A stretch of 37,752 nucleotides of DNA from Escherichia phage T7. The stretch lies in sequence record MZ375255.1. One strand, written 5' to 3'. The notes under the pieces were generated by a model. It had not been told where the DNA came from. It did not search any database and saw nothing but the letters and a program-made list of their open reading frames with translations. Numbering within the stretch: the first letter of the stretch is position 1; each line of letters begins with the position of its first letter. Of this stretch, positions 368-25,250 are shown piece after piece. A program made the position numbers and the translations under genes.

Positions 368-390
368 TAATACAACTCACTATAGGGAGA
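368..390 (+). promoter_or_regulatory. T7 RNAP promoter phiOL
   Basis: TAATACAACTCACTATAGGGAGA; 22/23 match to consensus, A at -11. Confidence 0.8.
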
Positions 391-2587: not shown

Positions 2588-5239
2588 ATGAACACGATTA
2601 ACATCGCTAAGAACGACTTCTCTGACATCGAACTGGCTGCTATCCCGTTCAACACTCTGGCTGACCATTACGGTGAGCGTTTAGCTCGCGAACAGTTGGC
2701 CCTTGAGCATGAGTCTTACGAGATGGGTGAAGCACGCTTCCGCAAGATGTTTGAGCGTCAACTTAAAGCTGGTGAGGTTGCGGATAACGCTGCCGCCAAG
2801 CCTCTCATCACTACCCTACTCCCTAAGATGATTGCACGCATCAACGACTGGTTTGAGGAAGTGAAAGCTAAGCGCGGCAAGCGCCCGACAGCCTTCCAGT
2901 TCCTGCAAGAAATCAAGCCGGAAGCCGTAGCGTACATCACCATTAAGACCACTCTGGCTTGCCTAACCAGTGCTGACAATACAACCGTTCAGGCTGTAGC
3001 AAGCGCAATCGGTCGGGCCATTGAGGACGAGGCTCGCTTCGGTCGTATCCGTGACCTTGAAGCTAAGCACTTCAAGAAAAACGTTGAGGAACAACTCAAC
3101 AAGCGCGTAGGGCACGTCTACAAGAAAGCATTTATGCGAGTTGTCGAGGCTGACATGCTCTCTAAGGGTCTACTCGGTGGCGAGGCGTGGTCTTCGTGGC
3201 ATAAGGAAGACTCTATTCATGTAGGAGTACGCTGCATCGAGATGCTCATTGAGTCAACCGGAATGGTTAGCTTACACCGCCAAAATGCTGGCGTAGTAGG
3301 TCAAGACTCTGAGACTATCGAACTCGCACCTGAATACGCTGAGGCTATCGCAACCCGTGCAGGTGCGCTGGCTGGCATCTCTCCGATGTTCCAACCTTGC
3401 GTAGTTCCTCCTAAGCCGTGGACTGGCATTACTGGTGGTGGCTATTGGGCTAACGGTCGTCGTCCTCTGGCGCTGGTGCGTACTCACAGTAAGAAAGCAC
3501 TGATGCGCTACGAAGACGTTTACATGCCTGAGGTGTACAAAGCGATTAACATTGCGCAAAACACCGCATGGAAAATCAACAAGAAAGTCCTAGCGGTCGC
3601 CAACGTAATCACCAAGTGGAAGCATTGTCCGGTCGAGGACATCCCTGCGATTGAGCGTGAAGAACTCCCGATGAAACCGGAAGACATCGACATGAATCCT
3701 GAGGCTCTCACCGCGTGGAAACGTGCTGCCGCTGCTGTGTACCGCAAGGACAAGGCTCGCAAGTCTCGCCGTATCAGCCTTGAGTTCATGCTTGAGCAAG
3801 CCAATAAGTTTGCTAACCATAAGGCCATCTGGTTCCCTTACAACATGGACTGGCGCGGTCGTGTTTACGCTGTGTCAATGTTCAACCCGCAAGGTAACGA
3901 TATGACCAAAGGACTGCTTACGCTGGCGAAAGGTAAACCAATCGGTAAGGAAGGTTACTACTGGCTGAAAATCCACGGTGCAAACTGTGCGGGTGTCGAT
4001 AAGGTTCCGTTCCCTGAGCGCATCAAGTTCATTGAGGAAAACCACGAGAACATCATGGCTTGCGCTAAGTCTCCACTGGAGAACACTTGGTGGGCTGAGC
4101 AAGATTCTCCGTTCTGCTTCCTTGCGTTCTGCTTTGAGTACGCTGGGGTACAGCACCACGGCCTGAGCTATAACTGCTCCCTTCCGCTGGCGTTTGACGG
4201 GTCTTGCTCTGGCATCCAGCACTTCTCCGCGATGCTCCGAGATGAGGTAGGTGGTCGCGCGGTTAACTTGCTTCCTAGTGAAACCGTTCAGGACATCTAC
4301 GGGATTGTTGCTAAGAAAGTCAACGAGATTCTACAAGCAGACGCAATCAATGGGACCGATAACGAAGTAGTTACCGTGACCGATGAGAACACTGGTGAAA
4401 TCTCTGAGAAAGTCAAGCTGGGCACTAAGGCACTGGCTGGTCAATGGCTGGCTTACGGTGTTACTCGCAGTGTGACTAAGCGTTCAGTCATGACGCTGGC
4501 TTACGGGTCCAAAGAGTTCGGCTTCCGTCAACAAGTGCTGGAAGATACCATTCAGCCAGCTATTGATTCCGGCAAGGGTCTGATGTTCACTCAGCCGAAT
4601 CAGGCTGCTGGATACATGGCTAAGCTGATTTGGGAATCTGTGAGCGTGACGGTGGTAGCTGCGGTTGAAGCAATGAACTGGCTTAAGTCTGCTGCTAAGC
4701 TGCTGGCTGCTGAGGTCAAAGATAAGAAGACTGGAGAGATTCTTCGCAAGCGTTGCGCTGTGCATTGGGTAACTCCTGATGGTTTCCCTGTGTGGCAGGA
4801 ATACAAGAAGCCTATTCAGACGCGCTTGAACCTGATGTTCCTCGGTCAGTTCCGCTTACAGCCTACCATTAACACCAACAAAGATAGCGAGATTGATGCA
4901 CACAAACAGGAGTCTGGTATCGCTCCTAACTTTGTACACAGCCAAGACGGTAGCCACCTTCGTAAGACTGTAGTGTGGGCACACGAGAAGTACGGAATCG
5001 AATCTTTTGCACTGATTCACGACTCCTTCGGTACCATTCCGGCTGACGCTGCGAACCTGTTCAAAGCAGTGCGCGAAACTATGGTTGACACATATGAGTC
5101 TTGTGATGTACTGGCTGATTTCTACGACCAGTTCGCTGACCAGTTGCACGAGTCTCAATTGGACAAAATGCCAGCACTTCCGGCTAAAGGTAACTTGAAC
5201 CTCCGTGACATCTTAGAGTCGGACTTCGCGTTCGCGTAA
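2588..5239 (+). CDS. 1: T7 RNA polymerase (883 aa)
   Basis: 883-aa ORF MNTINIAKNDFSDIELAAIPFNTLADHYGERLAREQ..., ends FAFA. Confidence 0.99.
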   Translation: MNTINIAKNDFSDIELAAIPFNTLADHYGERLAREQLALEHESYEMGEARFRKMFERQLKAGEVADNAAAKPLITTLLPKMIARINDWFEEVKAKRGKRPTAFQFLQEIKPEAVAYITIKTTLACLTSADNTTVQAVASAIGRAIEDEARFGRIRDLEAKHFKKNVEEQLNKRVGHVYKKAFMRVVEADMLSKGLLGGEAWSSWHKEDSIHVGVRCIEMLIESTGMVSLHRQNAGVVGQDSETIELAPEYAEAIATRAGALAGISPMFQPCVVPPKPWTGITGGGYWANGRRPLALVRTHSKKALMRYEDVYMPEVYKAINIAQNTAWKINKKVLAVANVITKWKHCPVEDIPAIEREELPMKPEDIDMNPEALTAWKRAAAAVYRKDKARKSRRISLEFMLEQANKFANHKAIWFPYNMDWRGRVYAVSMFNPQGNDMTKGLLTLAKGKPIGKEGYYWLKIHGANCAGVDKVPFPERIKFIEENHENIMACAKSPLENTWWAEQDSPFCFLAFCFEYAGVQHHGLSYNCSLPLAFDGSCSGIQHFSAMLRDEVGGRAVNLLPSETVQDIYGIVAKKVNEILQADAINGTDNEVVTVTDENTGEISEKVKLGTKALAGQWLAYGVTRSVTKRSVMTLAYGSKEFGFRQQVLEDTIQPAIDSGKGLMFTQPNQAAGYMAKLIWESVSVTVVAAVEAMNWLKSAAKLLAAEVKDKKTGEILRKRCAVHWVTPDGFPVWQEYKKPIQTRLNLMFLGQFRLQPTINTNKDSEIDAHKQESGIAPNFVHSQDGSHLRKTVVWAHEKYGIESFALIHDSFGTIPADAANLFKAVRETMVDTYESCDVLADFYDQFADQLHESQLDKMPALPAKGNLNLRDILESDFAFA

Positions 5240-7021: not shown

Positions 7022-7044
7022 TTTTACGACTCACTAAAGGAGGT
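7022..7044 (+). promoter_or_regulatory. T7 promoter phi1.5, with non-native T at -16 and -15
   Basis: TTTTACGACTCACTAAAGGAGGT; -14..+6 match phi1.5, upstream 3 nt replaced at deletion junction. Confidence 0.75.
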
Positions 7045-7427: not shown

Positions 7428-8009
7428 TGGGACTGTTAGATGGTGAAGCCTGGGAAAAAGAAAACCCGCCAGTACAAGCAACTGGGTGTATAGCTTGCTT
7501 AGAGAAAGATGACCGTTATCCACACACCTGTAACAAAGGAGCTAACGATATGACCGAACGTGAACAAGAGATGATCATTAAGTTGATAGACAATAATGAA
7601 GGTCGCCCAGATGATTTGAATGGCTGCGGTATTCTCTGCTCCAATGTCCCTTGCCACCTCTGCCCCGCAAATAACGATCAAAAGATAACCTTAGGTGAAA
7701 TCCGAGCGATGGACCCACGTAAACCACATCTGAATAAACCTGAGGTAACTCCTACAGATGACCAGCCTTCCGCTGAGACAATCGAAGGTGTCACTAAGCC
7801 TTCCCACTACATGCTGTTTGACGACATTGAGGCTATCGAAGTGATTGCTCGTTCAATGACCGTTGAGCAGTTCAAGGGATACTGCTTCGGTAACATCTTA
7901 AAGTACAGACTACGTGCTGGTAAGAAGTCAGAGTTAGCGTACTTAGAGAAAGACCTAGCGAAAGCAGACTTCTATAAAGAACTCTTTGAGAAACATAAGG
8001 ATAAATGTT

Positions 8010-9117: not shown

Positions 9118-9537
9118 GTGGAACTGCGGGAGAAAATCCTTGAGCGAATCAAGGTGACTTCCTCTGGGTGTTGGGAGTGGCAGGGCGCTACGAACAATAA
9201 AGGGTACGGGCAGGTGTGGTGCAGCAATACCGGAAAGGTTGTCTACTGTCATCGCGTAATGTCTAATGCTCCGAAAGGTTCTACCGTCCTGCACTCCTGT
9301 GATAATCCATTATGTTGTAACCCTGAACACCGTTCCATAGGAACTCCAAAAGAGAACTCCACTGACATGGTAAATAAGGGTCGCTCACACAAGGGGTATA
9401 AACTTTCAGACGAAGACGTAATGGCAATCATGGAGTCCAGCGAGTCCAATGTATCCTTAGCTCGCACCTATGGTGTCTCCCAACAGACTATTTGTGATAT
9501 ACGCAAAGGGAGGCGACATGGCAGGTTACGGCGCTAA
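9118..9537 (+). CDS. 2.8: Gp2.8, HNH-motif protein, paralog of gp7.7 (139 aa, GTG start)
   Basis: GTG start directly after 2.5 stop; HSCDNPLCCNPEH motif; clear similarity to 17872..18264. Confidence 0.8.
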   Translation: MELREKILERIKVTSSGCWEWQGATNNKGYGQVWCSNTGKVVYCHRVMSNAPKGSTVLHSCDNPLCCNPEHRSIGTPKENSTDMVNKGRSHKGYKLSDEDVMAIMESSESNVSLARTYGVSQQTICDIRKGRRHGRLRR

Positions 9538-9985: not shown

Positions 9986-10421
9986 ACAACGTGAATCTAC
10001 TGACGCAATCTTTGTTCACTGCTCGGCTACCAAGCCAAGTCAGAATGTTGGTGTCCGTGAGATTCGCCAGTGGCACAAAGAGCAGGGTTGGCTCGATGTG
10101 GGATACCACTTTATCATCAAGCGAGACGGTACTGTGGAGGCAGGACGAGATGAGATGGCTGTAGGCTCTCACGCTAAGGGTTACAACCACAACTCTATCG
10201 GCGTCTGCCTTGTTGGTGGTATCGACGATAAAGGTAAGTTCGACGCTAACTTTACGCCAGCCCAAATGCAATCCCTTCGCTCACTGCTTGTCACACTGCT
10301 GGCTAAGTACGAAGGCGCTGTGCTTCGCGCCCATCATGAGGTGGCGCCGAAGGCTTGCCCTTCGTTCGACCTTAAGCGTTGGTGGGAGAAGAACGAACTG
10401 GTCACTTCTGACCGTGGATAA
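9966..10421 (+). CDS. 3.5: T7 lysozyme (N-acetylmuramoyl-L-alanine amidase; T7 RNAP inhibitor), 151 aa
   Basis: MARVQFKQRESTDAIFVHCSATKPS...; 151 aa. Confidence 0.97.
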   Translation: MARVQFKQRESTDAIFVHCSATKPSQNVGVREIRQWHKEQGWLDVGYHFIIKRDGTVEAGRDEMAVGSHAKGYNHNSIGVCLVGGIDDKGKFDANFTPAQMQSLRSLLVTLLAKYEGAVLRAHHEVAPKACPSFDLKRWWEKNELVTSDRG

Positions 10422-12714: not shown

Positions 12715-14829
12715 ATGATCGTTTCTGACATCGAAGCTAACGCCCTCTTAGAGAGCGTCACTAAGTTCCACTGCGGGGTTATCTACGACTACTCCACCGC
12801 TGAGTACGTAAGCTACCGTCCGAGTGACTTCGGTGCGTATCTGGATGCGCTGGAAGCCGAGGTTGCACGAGGCGGTCTTATTGTGTTCCACAACGGTCAC
12901 AAGTATGACGTTCCTGCATTGACCAAACTGGCAAAGTTGCAATTGAACCGAGAGTTCCACCTTCCTCGTGAGAACTGTATTGACACCCTTGTGTTGTCAC
13001 GTTTGATTCATTCCAACCTCAAGGACACCGATATGGGTCTTCTGCGTTCCGGCAAGTTGCCCGGAAAACGCTTTGGGTCTCACGCTTTGGAGGCGTGGGG
13101 TTATCGCTTAGGCGAGATGAAGGGTGAATACAAAGACGACTTTAAGCGTATGCTTGAAGAGCAGGGTGAAGAATACGTTGACGGAATGGAGTGGTGGAAC
13201 TTCAACGAAGAGATGATGGACTATAACGTTCAGGACGTTGTGGTAACTAAAGCTCTCCTTGAGAAGCTACTCTCTGACAAACATTACTTCCCTCCTGAGA
13301 TTGACTTTACGGACGTAGGATACACTACGTTCTGGTCAGAATCCCTTGAGGCCGTTGACATTGAACATCGTGCTGCATGGCTGCTCGCTAAACAAGAGCG
13401 CAACGGGTTCCCGTTTGACACAAAAGCAATCGAAGAGTTGTACGTAGAGTTAGCTGCTCGCCGCTCTGAGTTGCTCCGTAAATTGACCGAAACGTTCGGC
13501 TCGTGGTATCAGCCTAAAGGTGGCACTGAGATGTTCTGCCATCCGCGAACAGGTAAGCCACTACCTAAATACCCTCGCATTAAGACACCTAAAGTTGGTG
13601 GTATCTTTAAGAAGCCTAAGAACAAGGCACAGCGAGAAGGCCGTGAGCCTTGCGAACTTGATACCCGCGAGTACGTTGCTGGTGCTCCTTACACCCCAGT
13701 TGAACATGTTGTGTTTAACCCTTCGTCTCGTGACCACATTCAGAAGAAACTCCAAGAGGCTGGGTGGGTCCCGACCAAGTACACCGATAAGGGTGCTCCT
13801 GTGGTGGACGATGAGGTACTCGAAGGAGTACGTGTAGATGACCCTGAGAAGCAAGCCGCTATCGACCTCATTAAAGAGTACTTGATGATTCAGAAGCGAA
13901 TCGGACAGTCTGCTGAGGGAGACACAGCATGGCTTCGTTATGTTGCTGAGGATGGTAAGATTCATGGTTCTGTTAACCCTAATGGAGCAGTTACGGGTCG
14001 TGCGACCCATGCGTTCCCAAACCTTGCGCAAATTCCGGGTGTACGTTCTCCTTATGGAGAGCAGTGTCGCGCTGCTTTTGGCGCTGAGCACCATTTGGAT
14101 GGGATAACTGGTAAGCCTTGGGTTCAGGCTGGCATCGACGCATCCGGTCTTGAGCTACGCTGCTTGGCTCACTTCATGGCTCGCTTTGATAACGGCGAGT
14201 ACGCTCACGAGATTCTTAACGGCGACATCCACACTAAGAACCAGATAGCTGCTGAACTACCTACCCGAGATAACGCTAAGACGTTCATCTATGGGTTCCT
14301 CTATGGTGCTGGTGATGAGAAGATTGGACAGATTGTTGGTGCTGGTAAAGAGCGCGGTAAGGAACTCAAGAAGAAATTCCTTGAGAACACCCCCGCGATT
14401 GCAGCACTCCGCGAGTCTATCCAACAGACACTTGTCGAGTCCTCTCAATGGGTAGCTGGTGAGCAACAAGTCAAGTGGAAACGCCGCTGGATTAAAGGTC
14501 TGGATGGTCGTAAGGTACACGTTCGTAGTCCTCACGCTGCCTTGAATACCCTACTGCAATCTGCTGGTGCTCTCATCTGCAAACTGTGGATTATCAAGAC
14601 CGAAGAGATGCTCGTAGAGAAAGGCTTGAAGCATGGCTGGGATGGGGACTTTGCGTACATGGCATGGGTACATGATGAAATCCAAGTAGGCTGCCGTACC
14701 GAAGAGATTGCTCAGGTGGTCATTGAGACCGCACAAGAAGCGATGCGCTGGGTTGGAGACCACTGGAACTTCCGGTGTCTTCTGGATACCGAAGGTAAGA
14801 TGGGTCCTAATTGGGCGATTTGCCACTGA
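12715..14829 (+). CDS. 5: DNA polymerase gp5 (704 aa)
   Basis: [12 protein letters not shown] (exo motif DxE), family A polymerase motifs; RBS aggagaaatcaat. Confidence 0.98.
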
Positions 14830-16550: not shown

Positions 16551-16573
16551 TTAATACGACTCACTATAGGGAG
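16551..16573 (+). promoter_or_regulatory. T7 class III promoter phi6.5
   Basis: TAATACGACTCACTATAGGGAGA. Confidence 0.95.
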
Positions 16574-16628
16574 ATAGGGGCCTTTACGATTATTACTTTA
16601 AGATTTAACTCTAAGAGGAATCTTTATT

Positions 16629-18264: not shown

Positions 18265-19874
18265 TGGCTGAGAAACGAACAGGACTTGCGGAGGATGGCG
18301 CAAAGTCTGTCTATGAGCGTTTAAAGAACGACCGTGCTCCCTATGAGACACGCGCTCAGAATTGCGCTCAATATACCATCCCATCATTGTTCCCTAAGGA
18401 CTCCGATAACGCCTCTACAGATTATCAAACTCCGTGGCAAGCCGTGGGCGCTCGTGGTCTGAACAATCTAGCCTCTAAGCTCATGCTGGCTCTATTCCCT
18501 ATGCAGACTTGGATGCGACTTACTATATCTGAATATGAAGCAAAGCAGTTACTGAGCGACCCCGATGGACTCGCTAAGGTCGATGAGGGCCTCTCGATGG
18601 TAGAGCGTATCATCATGAACTACATTGAGTCTAACAGTTACCGCGTGACTCTCTTTGAGGCTCTCAAACAGTTAGTCGTAGCTGGTAACGTCCTGCTGTA
18701 CCTACCGGAACCGGAAGGGTCAAACTATAATCCCATGAAGCTGTACCGATTGTCTTCTTATGTGGTCCAACGAGACGCATTCGGCAACGTTCTGCAAATG
18801 GTGACTCGTGACCAGATAGCTTTTGGTGCTCTCCCTGAGGACATCCGTAAGGCTGTAGAAGGTCAAGGTGGTGAGAAGAAAGCTGATGAGACAATCGACG
18901 TGTACACTCACATCTATCTGGATGAGGACTCAGGTGAATACCTCCGATACGAAGAGGTCGAGGGTATGGAAGTCCAAGGCTCCGATGGGACTTATCCTAA
19001 AGAGGCTTGCCCATACATCCCGATTCGGATGGTCAGACTAGATGGTGAATCCTACGGTCGTTCGTACATTGAGGAATACTTAGGTGACTTACGGTCCCTT
19101 GAAAATCTCCAAGAGGCTATCGTCAAGATGTCCATGATTAGCTCTAAGGTTATCGGCTTAGTGAATCCTGCTGGTATCACCCAGCCACGCCGACTGACCA
19201 AAGCTCAGACTGGTGACTTCGTTACTGGTCGTCCAGAAGACATCTCGTTCCTCCAACTGGAGAAGCAAGCAGACTTTACTGTAGCTAAAGCCGTAAGTGA
19301 CGCTATCGAGGCTCGCCTTTCGTTTGCCTTTATGTTGAACTCTGCGGTTCAGCGTACAGGTGAACGTGTGACCGCCGAAGAGATTCGGTATGTAGCTTCT
19401 GAACTTGAAGATACTTTAGGTGGTGTCTACTCTATCCTTTCTCAAGAATTACAATTGCCTCTGGTACGAGTGCTCTTGAAGCAACTACAAGCCACGCAAC
19501 AGATTCCTGAGTTACCTAAGGAAGCCGTAGAGCCAACCATTAGTACAGGTCTGGAAGCAATTGGTCGAGGACAAGACCTTGATAAGCTGGAGCGGTGTGT
19601 CACTGCGTGGGCTGCACTGGCACCTATGCGGGACGACCCTGATATTAACCTTGCGATGATTAAGTTACGTATTGCCAACGCTATCGGTATTGACACTTCT
19701 GGTATTCTACTCACCGAAGAACAGAAGCAACAGAAGATGGCCCAACAGTCTATGCAAATGGGTATGGATAATGGTGCTGCTGCGCTGGCTCAAGGTATGG
19801 CTGCACAAGCTACAGCTTCACCTGAGGCTATGGCTGCTGCCGCTGATTCCGTAGGTTTACAGCCGGGAATTTAA
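18264..19874 (+). CDS. 8: Portal (head-tail connector) protein gp8 (536 aa)
   Basis: MAEKRTGLAEDGAKSVYERLKNDRAPYETRAQNCAQYTIPSLFP...; 536 aa. Confidence 0.97.
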   Translation: MAEKRTGLAEDGAKSVYERLKNDRAPYETRAQNCAQYTIPSLFPKDSDNASTDYQTPWQAVGARGLNNLASKLMLALFPMQTWMRLTISEYEAKQLLSDPDGLAKVDEGLSMVERIIMNYIESNSYRVTLFEALKQLVVAGNVLLYLPEPEGSNYNPMKLYRLSSYVVQRDAFGNVLQMVTRDQIAFGALPEDIRKAVEGQGGEKKADETIDVYTHIYLDEDSGEYLRYEEVEGMEVQGSDGTYPKEACPYIPIRMVRLDGESYGRSYIEEYLGDLRSLENLQEAIVKMSMISSKVIGLVNPAGITQPRRLTKAQTGDFVTGRPEDISFLQLEKQADFTVAKAVSDAIEARLSFAFMLNSAVQRTGERVTAEEIRYVASELEDTLGGVYSILSQELQLPLVRVLLKQLQATQQIPELPKEAVEPTISTGLEAIGRGQDLDKLERCVTAWAALAPMRDDPDINLAMIKLRIANAIGIDTSGILLTEEQKQQKMAQQSMQMGMDNGAAALAQGMAAQATASPEAMAAAADSVGLQPGI

Positions 19875-19894
19875 TACGACTCACTATAGGGAGA
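19872..19894 (+). promoter_or_regulatory. T7 class III promoter phi9
   Basis: TAATACGACTCACTATAGGGAGA. Confidence 0.95.
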
Positions 19895-19973: not shown

Positions 19974-20897
19974 ATGGCTGAATCTAATGCAGACGTATAT
20001 GCATCTTTTGGCGTGAACTCCGCTGTGATGTCTGGTGGTTCCGTTGAGGAACATGAGCAGAACATGCTGGCTCTTGATGTTGCTGCCCGTGATGGCGATG
20101 ATGCAATCGAGTTAGCGTCAGACGAAGTGGAAACAGAACGTGACCTGTATGACAACTCTGACCCGTTCGGTCAAGAGGATGACGAAGGCCGCATTCAGGT
20201 TCGTATCGGTGATGGCTCTGAGCCGACCGATGTGGACACTGGAGAAGAAGGCGTTGAGGGCACCGAAGGTTCCGAAGAGTTTACCCCACTGGGCGAGACT
20301 CCAGAAGAACTGGTAGCTGCCTCTGAGCAACTTGGTGAGCACGAAGAGGGCTTCCAAGAGATGATTAACATTGCTGCTGAGCGTGGCATGAGTGTCGAGA
20401 CCATTGAGGCTATCCAGCGTGAGTACGAGGAGAACGAAGAGTTGTCCGCCGAGTCCTACGCTAAGCTGGCTGAAATTGGCTACACGAAGGCTTTCATTGA
20501 CTCGTATATCCGTGGTCAAGAAGCTCTGGTGGAGCAGTACGTAAACAGTGTCATTGAGTACGCTGGTGGTCGTGAACGTTTTGATGCACTGTATAACCAC
20601 CTTGAGACGCACAACCCTGAGGCTGCACAGTCGCTGGATAATGCGTTGACCAATCGTGACTTAGCGACCGTTAAGGCTATCATCAACTTGGCTGGTGAGT
20701 CTCGCGCTAAGGCGTTCGGTCGTAAGCCAACTCGTAGTGTGACTAATCGTGCTATTCCGGCTAAACCTCAGGCTACCAAGCGTGAAGGCTTTGCGGACCG
20801 TAGCGAGATGATTAAAGCTATGAGTGACCCTCGGTATCGCACAGATGCCAACTATCGTCGTCAAGTCGAACAGAAAGTAATCGATTCGAACTTCTGA
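19974..20897 (+). CDS. 9: Capsid assembly (scaffolding) protein gp9 (307 aa)
   Basis: Acidic 307-aa ORF MAESNADVYASFGVNSAVMSGG... Confidence 0.95.
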   Translation: MAESNADVYASFGVNSAVMSGGSVEEHEQNMLALDVAARDGDDAIELASDEVETERDLYDNSDPFGQEDDEGRIQVRIGDGSEPTDVDTGEEGVEGTEGSEEFTPLGETPEELVAASEQLGEHEEGFQEMINIAAERGMSVETIEAIQREYEENEELSAESYAKLAEIGYTKAFIDSYIRGQEALVEQYVNSVIEYAGGRERFDALYNHLETHNPEAAQSLDNALTNRDLATVKAIINLAGESRAKAFGRKPTRSVTNRAIPAKPQATKREGFADRSEMIKAMSDPRYRTDANYRRQVEQKVIDSNF

Positions 20898-20910: not shown

Positions 20911-20933
20911 TAATACGACTCACTATATGGAGA
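20911..20933 (+). promoter_or_regulatory. T7 class III promoter phi10 carrying T instead of G at +1
   Basis: TAATACGACTCACTATATGGAGA followed by canonical gene 10 leader ccacaacggtttccctctagaaataattttgtttaactttaagaaggagatatacat. Confidence 0.9.
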
Positions 20934-20990
20934 CCACAACGGTTTCCCTCTAGAAATAATTTTGTTTAACTTTAAGAAGGAGATATACAT

Positions 20991-22028
20991 ATGGCTAGCA
21001 TGACTGGTGGACAGCAAATGGGTACTAACCAAGGTAAAGGTGTAGTTGCTGCTGGAGATAAACTGGCGTTGTTCTTGAAGGTATTTGGCGGTGAAGTCCT
21101 GACTGCGTTCGCTCGTACCTCCGTGACCACTTCTCGCCACATGGTACGTTCCATCTCCAGCGGTAAATCCGCTCAGTTCCCTGTTCTGGGTCGCACTCAG
21201 GCAGCGTATCTGGCTCCGGGCGAGAACCTCGACGATAAACGTAAGGACATCAAACACACCGAGAAGGTAATCACCATTGACGGTCTCCTGACGGCTGACG
21301 TTCTGATTTATGATATTGAGGACGCGATGAACCACTACGACGTTCGCTCTGAGTATACCTCTCAGTTGGGTGAATCTCTGGCGATGGCTGCGGATGGTGC
21401 GGTTCTGGCTGAGATTGCCGGTCTGTGTAACGTGGAAAGCAAATATAATGAGAACATCGAGGGCTTAGGTACTGCTACCGTAATTGAGACCACTCAGAAC
21501 AAGGCCGCACTTACCGACCAAGTTGCGCTGGGTAAGGAGATTATTGCGGCTCTGACTAAGGCTCGTGCGGCTCTGACCAAGAACTATGTTCCGGCTGCTG
21601 ACCGTGTGTTCTACTGTGACCCAGATAGCTACTCTGCGATTCTGGCAGCACTGATGCCGAACGCAGCAAACTACGCTGCTCTGATTGACCCTGAGAAGGG
21701 TTCTATCCGCAACGTTATGGGCTTTGAGGTTGTAGAAGTTCCGCACCTCACCGCTGGTGGTGCTGGTACCGCTCGTGAGGGCACTACTGGTCAGAAGCAC
21801 GTCTTCCCTGCCAATAAAGGTGAGGGTAATGTCAAGGTTGCTAAGGACAACGTTATCGGCCTGTTCATGCACCGCTCTGCGGTAGGTACTGTTAAGCTGC
21901 GTGACTTGGCTCTGGAGCGCGCTCGCCGTGCTAACTTCCAAGCGGACCAGATTATCGCTAAGTACGCAATGGGCCACGGTGGTCTTCGCCCAGAAGCTGC
22001 TGGTGCAGTGGTTTTCAAAGTGGAGTAA
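20991..22028 (+). CDS. 10A: Major capsid protein gp10A (345 aa incl. stop count per ORF track)
   Basis: MASMTGGQQMG N-terminus (T7-tag); strong RBS aaggag. Confidence 0.99.
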   Translation: MASMTGGQQMGTNQGKGVVAAGDKLALFLKVFGGEVLTAFARTSVTTSRHMVRSISSGKSAQFPVLGRTQAAYLAPGENLDDKRKDIKHTEKVITIDGLLTADVLIYDIEDAMNHYDVRSEYTSQLGESLAMAADGAVLAEIAGLCNVESKYNENIEGLGTATVIETTQNKAALTDQVALGKEIIAALTKARAALTKNYVPAADRVFYCDPDSYSAILAALMPNAANYAALIDPEKGSIRNVMGFEVVEVPHLTAGGAGTAREGTTGQKHVFPANKGEGNVKVAKDNVIGLFMHRSAVGTVKLRDLALERARRANFQADQIIAKYAMGHGGLRPEAAGAVVFKVE

Positions 22029-22186: not shown

Positions 22187-22235
22187 CTAGCATAACCCCT
22201 TGGGGCCTCTAAACGGGTCTTGAGGGGTTTTTTGC
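22187..22235 (+). terminator. T7 late terminator Tphi
   Basis: ctagcataaccccttggggcctctaaacgggtcttgaggggttttttg hairpin plus U-tract. Confidence 0.97.
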
Positions 22236-22865: not shown

Positions 22866-25250
22866 ATGGCACTCATTAGCCAATCAATCAAGAACTTGAA
22901 GGGTGGTATCAGCCAACAGCCTGACATCCTTCGTTATCCAGACCAAGGGTCACGCCAAGTTAACGGTTGGTCTTCGGAGACCGAGGGCCTCCAAAAGCGT
23001 CCACCTCTTGTTTTCTTAAATACACTTGGAGACAACGGTGCGTTAGGTCAAGCTCCGTACATCCACCTGATTAACCGAGATGAGCACGAACAGTATTACG
23101 CTGTGTTCACTGGTAGCGGAATCCGAGTGTTCGACCTTTCTGGTAACGAGAAGCAAGTTAGGTATCCTAACGGTTCCAACTACATCAAGACCGCTAATCC
23201 ACGTAACGACCTGCGAATGGTTACTGTAGCAGACTATACGTTCATCGTTAACCGTAACGTTGTTGCACAGAAGAACACAAAGTCTGTCAACTTACCGAAT
23301 TACAACCCTAATCAAGACGGATTGATTAACGTTCGTGGTGGTCAGTATGGTAGGGAACTAATTGTACACATTAACGGTAAAGACGTTGCGAAGTATAAGA
23401 TACCAGATGGTAGTCAACCTGAACACGTAAACAATACGGATGCCCAATGGTTAGCTGAAGAGTTAGCCAAGCAGATGCGCACTAACTTGTCTGATTGGAC
23501 TGTAAATGTAGGGCAAGGGTTCATCCATGTGACCGCACCTAGTGGTCAACAGATTGACTCCTTCACGACTAAAGATGGCTACGCAGACCAGTTGATTAAC
23601 CCTGTGACCCACTACGCTCAGTCGTTCTCTAAGCTGCCACCTAATGCTCCTAACGGCTACATGGTGAAAATCGTAGGGGACGCCTCTAAGTCTGCCGACC
23701 AGTATTACGTTCGGTATGACGCTGAGCGGAAAGTTTGGACTGAGACTTTAGGTTGGAACACTGAGGACCAAGTTCTATGGGAAACCATGCCACACGCTCT
23801 TGTGCGAGCCGCTGACGGTAATTTCGACTTCAAGTGGCTTGAGTGGTCTCCTAAGTCTTGTGGTGACGTTGACACCAACCCTTGGCCTTCTTTTGTTGGT
23901 TCAAGTATTAACGATGTGTTCTTCTTCCGTAACCGCTTAGGATTCCTTAGTGGGGAGAACATCATATTGAGTCGTACAGCCAAATACTTCAACTTCTACC
24001 CTGCGTCCATTGCGAACCTTAGTGATGACGACCCTATAGACGCAGCTGTGAGTACCAACCGAATAGCAATCCTTAAGTACGCCGTTCCGTTCTCAGAAGA
24101 GTTACTCATCTGGTCCGATGAAGCACAATTCGTCCTGACTGCCTCGGGTACTCTCACATCTAAGTCGGTTGAGTTGAACCTAACGACCCAGTTTGACGTA
24201 CAGGACCGAGCGAGACCTTTTGGGATTGGGCGTAATGTCTACTTTGCTAGTCCGAGGTCCAGCTTCACGTCCATCCACAGGTACTACGCTGTGCAGGATG
24301 TCAGTTCCGTTAAGAATGCTGAGGACATTACATCACACGTTCCTAACTACATCCCTAATGGTGTGTTCAGTATTTGCGGAAGTGGTACGGAAAACTTCTG
24401 TTCGGTACTATCTCACGGGGACCCTAGTAAAATCTTCATGTACAAATTCCTGTACCTGAACGAAGAGTTAAGGCAACAGTCGTGGTCTCATTGGGACTTT
24501 GGGGAAAACGTACAGGTTCTAGCTTGTCAGAGTATCAGCTCAGATATGTATGTGATTCTTCGCAATGAGTTCAATACGTTCCTAGCTAGAATCTCTTTCA
24601 CTAAGAACGCCATTGACTTACAGGGAGAACCCTATCGTGCCTTTATGGACATGAAGATTCGATACACGATTCCTAGTGGAACATACAACGATGACACATT
24701 CACTACCTCTATTCATATTCCAACAATTTATGGTGCAAACTTCGGGAGGGGCAAAATCACTGTATTGGAGCCTGATGGTAAGATAACCGTGTTTGAGCAA
24801 CCTACGGCTGGGTGGAATAGCGACCCTTGGCTGAGACTCAGCGGTAACTTGGAGGGACGCATGGTGTACATTGGGTTCAACATTAACTTCGTATATGAGT
24901 TCTCTAAGTTCCTCATCAAGCAGACTGCCGACGACGGGTCTACCTCCACGGAAGACATTGGGCGCTTACAGTTACGCCGAGCGTGGGTTAACTACGAGAA
25001 CTCTGGTACGTTTGACATTTATGTTGAGAACCAATCGTCTAACTGGAAGTACACAATGGCTGGTGCCCGATTAGGCTCTAACACTCTGAGGGCTGGGAGA
25101 CTGAACTTAGGGACCGGACAATATCGATTCCCTGTGGTTGGTAACGCCAAGTTCAACACTGTATACATCTTGTCAGATGAGACTACCCCTCTGAACATCA
25201 TTGGGTGTGGCTGGGAAGGTAACTACTTACGGAGAAGTTCCGGTATTTAA
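22866..25250 (+). CDS. 12: Tail tubular protein B gp12 (794 aa)
   Basis: 794-aa ORF, RBS aaggagg. Confidence 0.95.
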   Translation: MALISQSIKNLKGGISQQPDILRYPDQGSRQVNGWSSETEGLQKRPPLVFLNTLGDNGALGQAPYIHLINRDEHEQYYAVFTGSGIRVFDLSGNEKQVRYPNGSNYIKTANPRNDLRMVTVADYTFIVNRNVVAQKNTKSVNLPNYNPNQDGLINVRGGQYGRELIVHINGKDVAKYKIPDGSQPEHVNNTDAQWLAEELAKQMRTNLSDWTVNVGQGFIHVTAPSGQQIDSFTTKDGYADQLINPVTHYAQSFSKLPPNAPNGYMVKIVGDASKSADQYYVRYDAERKVWTETLGWNTEDQVLWETMPHALVRAADGNFDFKWLEWSPKSCGDVDTNPWPSFVGSSINDVFFFRNRLGFLSGENIILSRTAKYFNFYPASIANLSDDDPIDAAVSTNRIAILKYAVPFSEELLIWSDEAQFVLTASGTLTSKSVELNLTTQFDVQDRARPFGIGRNVYFASPRSSFTSIHRYYAVQDVSSVKNAEDITSHVPNYIPNGVFSICGSGTENFCSVLSHGDPSKIFMYKFLYLNEELRQQSWSHWDFGENVQVLACQSISSDMYVILRNEFNTFLARISFTKNAIDLQGEPYRAFMDMKIRYTIPSGTYNDDTFTTSIHIPTIYGANFGRGKITVLEPDGKITVFEQPTAGWNSDPWLRLSGNLEGRMVYIGFNINFVYEFSKFLIKQTADDGSTSTEDIGRLQLRRAWVNYENSGTFDIYVENQSSNWKYTMAGARLGSNTLRAGRLNLGTGQYRFPVVGNAKFNTVYILSDETTPLNIIGCGWEGNYLRRSSGI

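Follow-up and report, generated by a model that had tools for sequence, protein, structure and literature searches.

The stretch of DNA analysed here (the window) comprises 37,752 nucleotides of sequence record MZ375255.1, from Escherichia phage T7. At the locus under study, the class III promoter phi10, the strongest late promoter of T7, lies 5' of the late gene 10, which encodes the major capsid protein, and the other class III promoters phi6.5 and phi9 lie upstream of it (Table 1). A direct read of positions 20911-20933 gives TAATACGACTCACTATATGGAGA, followed downstream by CCACAACGG...AAGGAGATATACATATG. In the alignment to the T7 reference genome NC_001604, position 20928 maps to 22904, the annotated phi10 start, which is a G in the reference and a T in the window. 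The site is orthologous to reference phi10, and the gene for the cognate RNA polymerase (RNAP), gene 1, is present in the same window at 2588-5239. A scan of the window with the 23-nt class III consensus, in which up to 3 mismatches were allowed, found 10 sites against 0 expected by chance. Five of them match the consensus exactly, namely phi6.5 (16552), phi9 (19872), phi13 (25281), phi17 (32573) and phiOR (37236), as had been stated in an earlier note made from the sequence alone. The T at +1 of phi10, to which that note drew attention, is the one mismatch of this promoter to the consensus, and the possibility raised there that reference T7 might itself carry T is answered by the G of NC_001604.

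With regard to the individual elements of the promoter, the binding element from -17 to -5 (TAATACGACTCAC) is exact at 20911-20923 and the melting element from -4 to -1 reads TATA at 20924-20927. The initiating G of the class III motif GGGAGA is replaced by T at 20928, followed by GGAGA from +2 to +6. With 22 of 23 bases retained, phi10 of the window is a mutant derivative of a class III promoter and not a new promoter class. Among the 17 promoters of reference T7, the +1 base is G in 15, A in phiOL and phi2.5, and T in none. Wild-type phi10, the promoter used in pET vectors, shares with the window its position 5' of gene 10, the bases from -17 to -1 and from +2 to +6, the leader and the ribosome-binding site. 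It has G at +1, whereas phi10 of the window has T, and natural T7 promoters have no pyrimidine at this position; unlike phi10 of the window, phi2.5 and phiOL start with the purine A. A scan of 20911-20933 for an E. coli-type promoter arising from the G>T change found no sigma-70-like site.

Table 1. Features of the phi10 region and related elements (window coordinates).
Feature	Position	Strand	Basis or remark
phi10 class III promoter, -17 to +6, variant TAATACGACTCACTATA-T-GGAGA	20911..20933	+	Reference 22887-22909, annotated phi10
Mutation phi10 +1 G>T	20928..20928	+	Reference 22904; common to 34 other clone genomes
Probable residual start at +2/+3 GG (transcript pppGGAGACC...)	20929..20930	+	Suggested by the GTP preference of T7 RNAP and by Imburgio et al. 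2000
5' hairpin of gene 10 leader RNA	20928..20948	+	8 bp in wild type, 7 bp in the window; terminal G-C pair gone
Gene 10 Shine-Dalgarno (AAGGAG) and ATG, unaltered in the window	20977..20993	+	
Gene 10A, major capsid protein CDS	20991..22028	+	Coordinate map; reference 22967-24004
phi9, exact consensus, source of gene 10 read-through transcripts	19872..19894	+	Scan; Paff 2018
phi6.5, exact consensus, first class III promoter upstream	16552..16574	+	Scan
Gene 9 (scaffold) CDS, between phi9 and phi10	19974..20897	+	Coordinate map
Tphi terminator	22194..22229	+	15-pair stem, then T run
phiOL with +1 A>G (window 385, reference 405), toward consensus	368..390	+	Scan, alignment
Gene 1, T7 RNA polymerase, with Q184R (window 3138, reference 3721)	2588..5239	+	

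The origin of the window could be traced by megablast to a series of records named 'Mutant Escherichia phage T7 clone T7_nnnL/S' (MZ375233-MZ375294). These belong to a study of Cas9-assisted iterative genome reduction (CiPGr), in which T7 was taken through 300 transfers on an MG1655 host equipped with Cas9, lambda Red and a plasmid library of spacers and repair templates (Yuan et al. 2022, PMC9825161). In that study, 60 clones were sequenced, at intervals of 10 transfers, and were labelled L for large plaques and strong killing or S for small plaques and weak killing (Yuan et al. 2022, PMC9825161). By the accession order of the series, which was confirmed on 20 of its records, MZ375255 is probably clone T7_120L. 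Outside seven deletions, which take out genes 0.4-0.6, 1.4, 3.8, 4.3, 4.7, 5.3 and 19.5, the window is more than 99.9% identical to NC_001604. Its seven deletion junctions are those of clones 140S, 190S and 200L, and it carries point mutations specific to the lineage (among them gene 1 Q184R, gp7.3 T13P/R25S and gp16 K1158R/A1193V).

A 71-nt query spanning position 20928 was found without mismatch in 33 records, every one of them from the CiPGr series, and clone 250L also carries the T at +1 (hereafter +1T) together with a second change in phi10, for a total of 34 other carriers. The substitution appears in none of the 22 regular clones of transfers 10-110, nor in the extra clone T7_100L.2, which also has G, and then in 34 of the 38 clones of transfers 120-300 (the exceptions being 140L, 150L, 170L and 220S), including 10 out of 10 at transfers 260-300, and additionally in 300L.2; as the clones were drawn from a single evolving population, or from mixtures of two, these counts do not represent independent events. 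The mutation, its inheritance and its rise to fixation are directly established by these genomes: +1T arose once in the CiPGr line and was then fixed. An error of sequencing or assembly, which the earlier note had also entertained, has nothing in its favour except that the difference is a single base. However, the same T is present in 34 other genomes of one lineage that were separately sequenced and independently assembled, its time course is coherent, and contemporaneous clones with G came through the same sequencing pipeline. An error is excluded on these grounds, with a probability that is practically nil, and it is virtually certain that +1T is a genuine mutation.

Outside the series, no exact match was found in 50,697 phage records, other T7 and T7-like phages included, and the 21-mer with +1T is absent from IMG/VR, the JGI metagenomes and the GTDB genomes, which rules out a natural polymorphism. 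Records OL964742 and OL964744, considered as T7 isolates, correspond to Salmonella phage seszw. An association of +1T with small-plaque clones was discarded as well, since, while both alleles were segregating, +1T was present in 11 of 14 L and 13 of 14 S clones, which is no meaningful difference. The main text of Yuan et al. 2022, its supplementary mutation and spacer tables aside, makes no mention of T7 promoters, position 22904 or phi10, and literature searches on the accession and on '22904' returned nothing relevant.

Initiation by T7 RNAP depends on the initiating GTP, with a high Km and specific polymerase contacts (review PMC11617373). The effect of the G+1T substitution in the consensus promoter can be read from the S2 file of Komura 2018, which reports an in vitro barcoded screen with wild-type polymerase. 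In this file, the substituted promoter (TAATACGACTCACTATATG) yielded 13.8 RNA/DNA reads from one barcode, and the wild type averaged 169 +/- 19 over five barcodes, three of the individual values being 176-188. The substitution accordingly retains ~8% of wild-type activity in vitro, a figure that comes from one barcode and from wild-type polymerase, whereas the RNAP of the window phage carries Q184R. In the same file G+1A retains ~40% of wild-type activity and the -6 A>G substitution ~28%, and the portion of the table that runs down to background holds no value for G-11A or G+2T. Furthermore, transcripts are reported to have heterogeneous 5' ends when A, U or C takes the place of the +1 G (PMC3683919). 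The reduced or shifted initiation that the earlier note had predicted for phi10 is in agreement with both the activity in vitro and the heterogeneous 5' ends. The +1T is very probably a strong promoter-down change, the size of the loss being taken from the literature. Promoters substituted at +1 in this manner reportedly start mainly at the next G.

The viability of T7 devoid of phi10 is likewise documented in the literature. In Paff 2018, the replacement of phi10 by an arbitrary sequence in a wild-type background gave a viable phage with a small, non-significant loss of fitness. The share of 10A RNA due to phi9 was similar to that due to phi10, the double knockout of phi9 and phi10 lowered 10A RNA by 84-86% and also decreased the RNA of genes 11 and 12, and changes near the gene 10 start appeared when expression was too low (Paff 2018). 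The window likely represents a near-knockout of phi10. Both it and the phage of Paff 2018 would have lost phi10 function and remained viable, with gene 10 expressed from upstream promoters, and both the knockout and the CiPGr series present accompanying changes at RNAP residues 95/96 and adjoining the gene 10 start. The two differ in that the former was a deliberate promoter replacement that decreased fitness, whereas in CiPGr one spontaneous base change spread unaided. With regard to the in vitro variants (Komura et al. 2018; Imburgio et al. 2000), the substitution and its consensus context are identical to those of the window, with the measured ~8% described above. Those variants were placed on synthetic templates, whereas that of the window resides in a replicating phage, whose RNAP has Q184R and in which it ousted the wild-type allele in ~150 transfers.

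Between phi6.5 and gene 11, Tphi, downstream of gene 10, is the sole strong terminator-like hairpin, and the terminator scan found none before gene 10 in the interval from phi6.5 or phi9 to phi10. The RNA of genes 10, 11 and 12 would be expected to undergo a substantial but non-lethal drop. Capsid expression would be lower, as the earlier note had considered possible; the intact phi9 and phi6.5 promoters, the lack of a terminator ahead of gene 10 and the viability of the phi10 knockout make a buffering of this effect probable. In the leader, the predicted energy of the 5' hairpin is -19.3 kcal/mol in the wild type and -15.6 kcal/mol in the window. The G>T change also creates an ATG at 20927-20929, which opens an upstream ORF of 8 codons (METTTVSL) that ends at the TAG of the XbaI site (20951-20953). 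No Shine-Dalgarno sequence is found in the leader before the new AUG at 20927.

Of the ~68 deposited genomes of the study, 23 (20 whole and 3 partial) were compared to the reference in full or in part, and the rest by means of short exact-match queries. In phi9, phi10 and phi13 together, at least 8 independent hits were found, phi10 +1T among them, and these parallel hits in the capsid module are also a direct observation. Isolate T7_1t2 (OL964749) has a phi10 +2 G>T change (TATAGTGAGA; reference 22905) in addition to a phi13 +6 A>C change (reference 27279). It presents deletions of ~100 bp, as is typical of the second (cassette-100) library, and is probably the optimal mutant T7_100_t2 of Yuan et al. 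2022. Its +2 G>T change struck the initiation dinucleotide of phi10 independently of +1T. The -11 G>A change occurred separately in phi9 (reference 21854; 300L.2), in phi10 (22893; 250L, on top of +1T) and in phi13 (27263), where it was present in seven clones of transfers 130-220 and then disappeared. Position -11 of the promoter is touched by residue N748 of RNAP, and phiOL natively has A there. Additionally, clone 220S carries an insertion of G at +7 of phi13.

Upstream and downstream of phi10, two further changes recur. The first of these, phi9 -6 A>G (21859G), is found in 100L.2, 140L, 150L, 170L, 5t1 and 5t2. The other, 22966 T>C, affects the base 5' of the gene 10 ATG (CATATG to CACATG; equivalent to window position 20990) and is found in 170L, 220S, 230S, 250L and the fast killers 5t2 and 5t3; it is absent from the window. 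In the four late clones that lack +1T, phi9 -6G, 22966C or both are present, and the clones without +1T from transfer 100 onwards have another change in the capsid module. In the genomes compared, phi9 -6G and phi10 +1T never occur together. After 300 transfers, phi6.5, phi17 and phiOR show no change in any genome examined.

These promoter changes were set against the 170 distinct point variants detected in the 20 genomes. Ten variants fall within the 391 promoter bases, where 1.7 would be expected (P=9e-6), seven of them in phi9, phi10 or phi13, where 0.3 would be expected (P=2e-5, corrected for the choice of three promoters), and three in phi10 (corrected P=2.5e-3). Regarding the mutation spectrum, G>T/C>A is the commonest type, with 50 of 164 substitutions, and is enriched ~2-fold at a G followed by a G, which is an oxidative-damage-like signature. 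The +1 and +2 positions of the GGG are mutation-prone for this reason. The bias accounts for the type of change and not for its concentration at phi10, given that the genome has 663 GGG sites. Gene conversion between promoter copies was rejected as a source of +1T and +2T, since no T7 promoter has T at these positions; it could be the source of the phiOL change to the consensus and of a -11A copied from phiOL.

The phiOL promoter of the window reads TAATACAACTCACTATAGGGAGA, and its +1G, a change that the earlier note does not mention, is found in 43 records of the series, the earliest at transfer 30. The reverse exchange, G+1A in the consensus promoter, is the one that retains ~40% of wild-type activity in vitro. 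In clones 150L and 170L, phiOL has also acquired -11 A>G (reference 394), which results in a perfect class III consensus. The change at +1 of phiOL, from A to G, thus runs in the opposite direction to the change at +1 of phi10 in the same genome. With regard to the polymerase, Q184R is present in all clones examined from transfer 100 onwards, including the window and T7_1t2, and V137A, R96C, S241A, E245G and P862S were gained later. Several of these changes fall in elements that contact the promoter, with residue 96 in the AT-rich recognition loop. Residues 241 and 245 are located in the intercalating hairpin (PMC11617373). Promoters and polymerase may be co-evolving in this lineage.

The following sequence of events is proposed for phi10. 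A G>T transversion at its initiating base arose in the CiPGr line at approximately transfers 110-120 and subsequently became fixed, with the window among the earliest carriers. T7 RNAP needs a purine, preferably GTP, at +1, and a T at this position would cost most of the promoter activity, to judge from the ~8% left in vitro on the consensus promoter. The leftover transcripts would most likely start at the +2 G, a shift that we infer, with pppGGAGACC... as their 5' end and a leader hairpin one base pair shorter. Genes 10, 11 and 12 would then be transcribed chiefly by read-through from phi9 and phi6.5, and the phage would stay viable with less capsid-module RNA. The substitution would most likely have spread in response to a regime or a genetic background in which lower or rebalanced promoter output in the capsid module was favoured. 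With moderate confidence, we infer that selection on capsid-module transcription, acting at 22904, was responsible for the spread of +1T.

Several observations bear on this proposal. The substitution is found on several deletion and SNP backgrounds, and already at transfer 120 it was present on both deletion alleles of the 0.4-0.6 region and on different flanking SNP haplotypes. In the genomes compared, no variant specific to +1T other than +1T itself was found within 3 kb. Against selection, +1T is missing from all six fast-killer isolates, which were selected on a plasmid-free host, and in competition on such a host the best mutant lost to wild-type T7 (Yuan et al. 2022, PMC9825161). Any benefit of +1T must be specific to the background or the regime, because the loss of phi10 is mildly costly in the wild type, wild-type T7 beat the best mutant and the fast killers lack +1T. 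Furthermore, the direction of selection on the capsid module is uncertain, since the start-proximal changes of Paff 2018 arose when expression was too low, and 22966C could act either way. A wider pattern can be put forward tentatively, as a possibility that falls somewhat short of an even chance: a reproducible adaptive retuning in which phi9, phi10 and phi13 were weakened (at +1, +2, -6 and three times at -11), phiOL was improved (+1 A>G, -11 A>G) and RNAP was changed (R96C; S241A, E245G). If this were true, the wild-type strength of the class III promoters would not be optimal once the genome, the host or the regime changes, and the promoter-polymerase pair would co-evolve on a laboratory time scale.

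The main rival to selection at phi10 is hitchhiking or drift, whereby +1T would be a real promoter-down change, neutral or slightly deleterious, that was fixed because it was linked to deletions or point mutations of benefit, or through the bottlenecks that recur with Cas9 killing at each transfer. Such a passenger would be tolerable given the small cost of the phi10 knockout (Paff 2018), and the regime strongly selects Cas9-resistant deletions (PMC9825161), with which it could have been carried along. Promoter alleles also seem to fluctuate in this population, as seen for phi13 -11A, which climbed to seven clones and then vanished, and G>T at runs of G is a frequent mutation. However, +1T is seen on many recombinant backgrounds and no variant within 3 kb segregates with it, which speaks against a passenger, and so do the over-representation of promoter hits and their concentration in phi9, phi10 and phi13, the independent +2T in phi10, and the alternative capsid-module changes borne by the clones that lack +1T. 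On this evidence hitchhiking or drift appears unlikely, yet it carries real weight.

The two other readings attribute the change to Cas9 or to the RNA itself. In the former, +1T would be an escape mutation that destroys the AGG PAM at -1 to +2 of a spacer that cuts class III promoters, with the protospacer at -21 to -2 (candidate protospacers AAATTAATACGACTCACTAT and TCACTATAGGGAGACCACAA). The geometry fits +1T, in the PAM, as well as -6G and -11A, in the protospacer seed, and spacer or PAM regions hold ~23% of the point mutations reported for T7 (Yuan et al. 2022, PMC9825161). Nevertheless, the deletion junctions track standard CDS boundaries, which points to designs inside genes, and the non-promoter T7 protospacers differ from every protospacer that covers 22904 by at least 6-8 mismatches, of which 2-3 fall in the seed. 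Such a spacer would be a perfect match at phi6.5, phi13 and phiOR, yet phi6.5, phi17 and phiOR remained intact after 300 transfers; the phiOL +1 A>G change creates the same PAM and still spread, and +2T and 22966C would be left unexplained. Escape from Cas9 is thus very improbable. The same slight probability is given to an effect at the RNA level, in which a weaker leader hairpin on all gene 10 transcripts and an upstream AUG on read-through transcripts would alter mRNA stability or translation. The predicted loss of the terminal G-C pair, worth ~3.7 kcal/mol, and the ATG with its short ORF, which are visible in the sequence, would be compatible with it. On the other hand, the new AUG lacks a Shine-Dalgarno sequence and sits within the hairpin, the hits at -11 and -6 lie upstream of the phi10 and phi9 starts and cannot act in this way, and the promoter effect measured in vitro in the S2 file of Komura 2018 is large. 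Selection on capsid-module transcription is retained as the preferred explanation.

Part of this picture was already known, from in vitro work on this very substitution and from an engineered T7 devoid of phi10. The spontaneous origin of +1T and its fixation in a viable lineage are new, and the surrounding parallel changes in promoters and polymerase are apparently unreported. Recombinant expression and in vitro transcription rely heavily on T7 promoters, phi10 foremost, and the natural invariance of these promoters is usually taken to mean that maximum strength is the optimum, to which the CiPGr lineage offers a counter-example. If +1T was driven by selection, the lineage would constitute a natural experiment on the capsid transcription requirement of T7 and would provide ready-made alleles to tune late expression in engineered T7. 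It would also call for caution in phage genome minimisation, where regulatory retuning could take place alongside gene loss and be invisible in gene-content maps. If +1T was a mere passenger, its fixation would still show that phi10 is largely dispensable while phi9 is intact.

Other features of the window and the series are recorded here as separate observations. The designed deletion of gene 1.4 (reference 7608-7763) clips the first three bases of the promoter phi1.5 (window 7022-7044), so that positions -17 to -15, formerly TAA, read TTT in all clones with this deletion. In gene 3, which encodes endonuclease I, a deletion of one base in an A run near the 3' end (window 9943, reference 10682) is found in the window only; either it shifts the reading frame of the final few codons or it is a sequencing error in the homopolymer. 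An adjacent TA>GT change in gene 2.8 (window 9332-9333, reference 10071-10072; L72R) is shared by 13 of the compared genomes and could be an escape from Cas9 in a targeted non-essential gene. Two deletion alleles exist for the 0.4-0.6 region (reference 1353-1903 and 1314-1980) and two for the 4.3-4.7 region (reference 13278-14272, and 13353-13547 plus 13927-14334). These alternative alleles persist side by side for more than 150 transfers and are reshuffled relative to one another and to point mutations, which indicates frequent recombination or recurrent templated deletion. The left terminal repeat has an 18-nt deletion (reference 99-116, window ~97), apparently mirrored in the right copy (window ~37713). 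Point changes are present at window positions 141 (reference 161) and 216 (reference 236), the latter in the -10 region of the leftward E. coli promoter A0, and larger rearrangements are found in other clones at reference 195-305.
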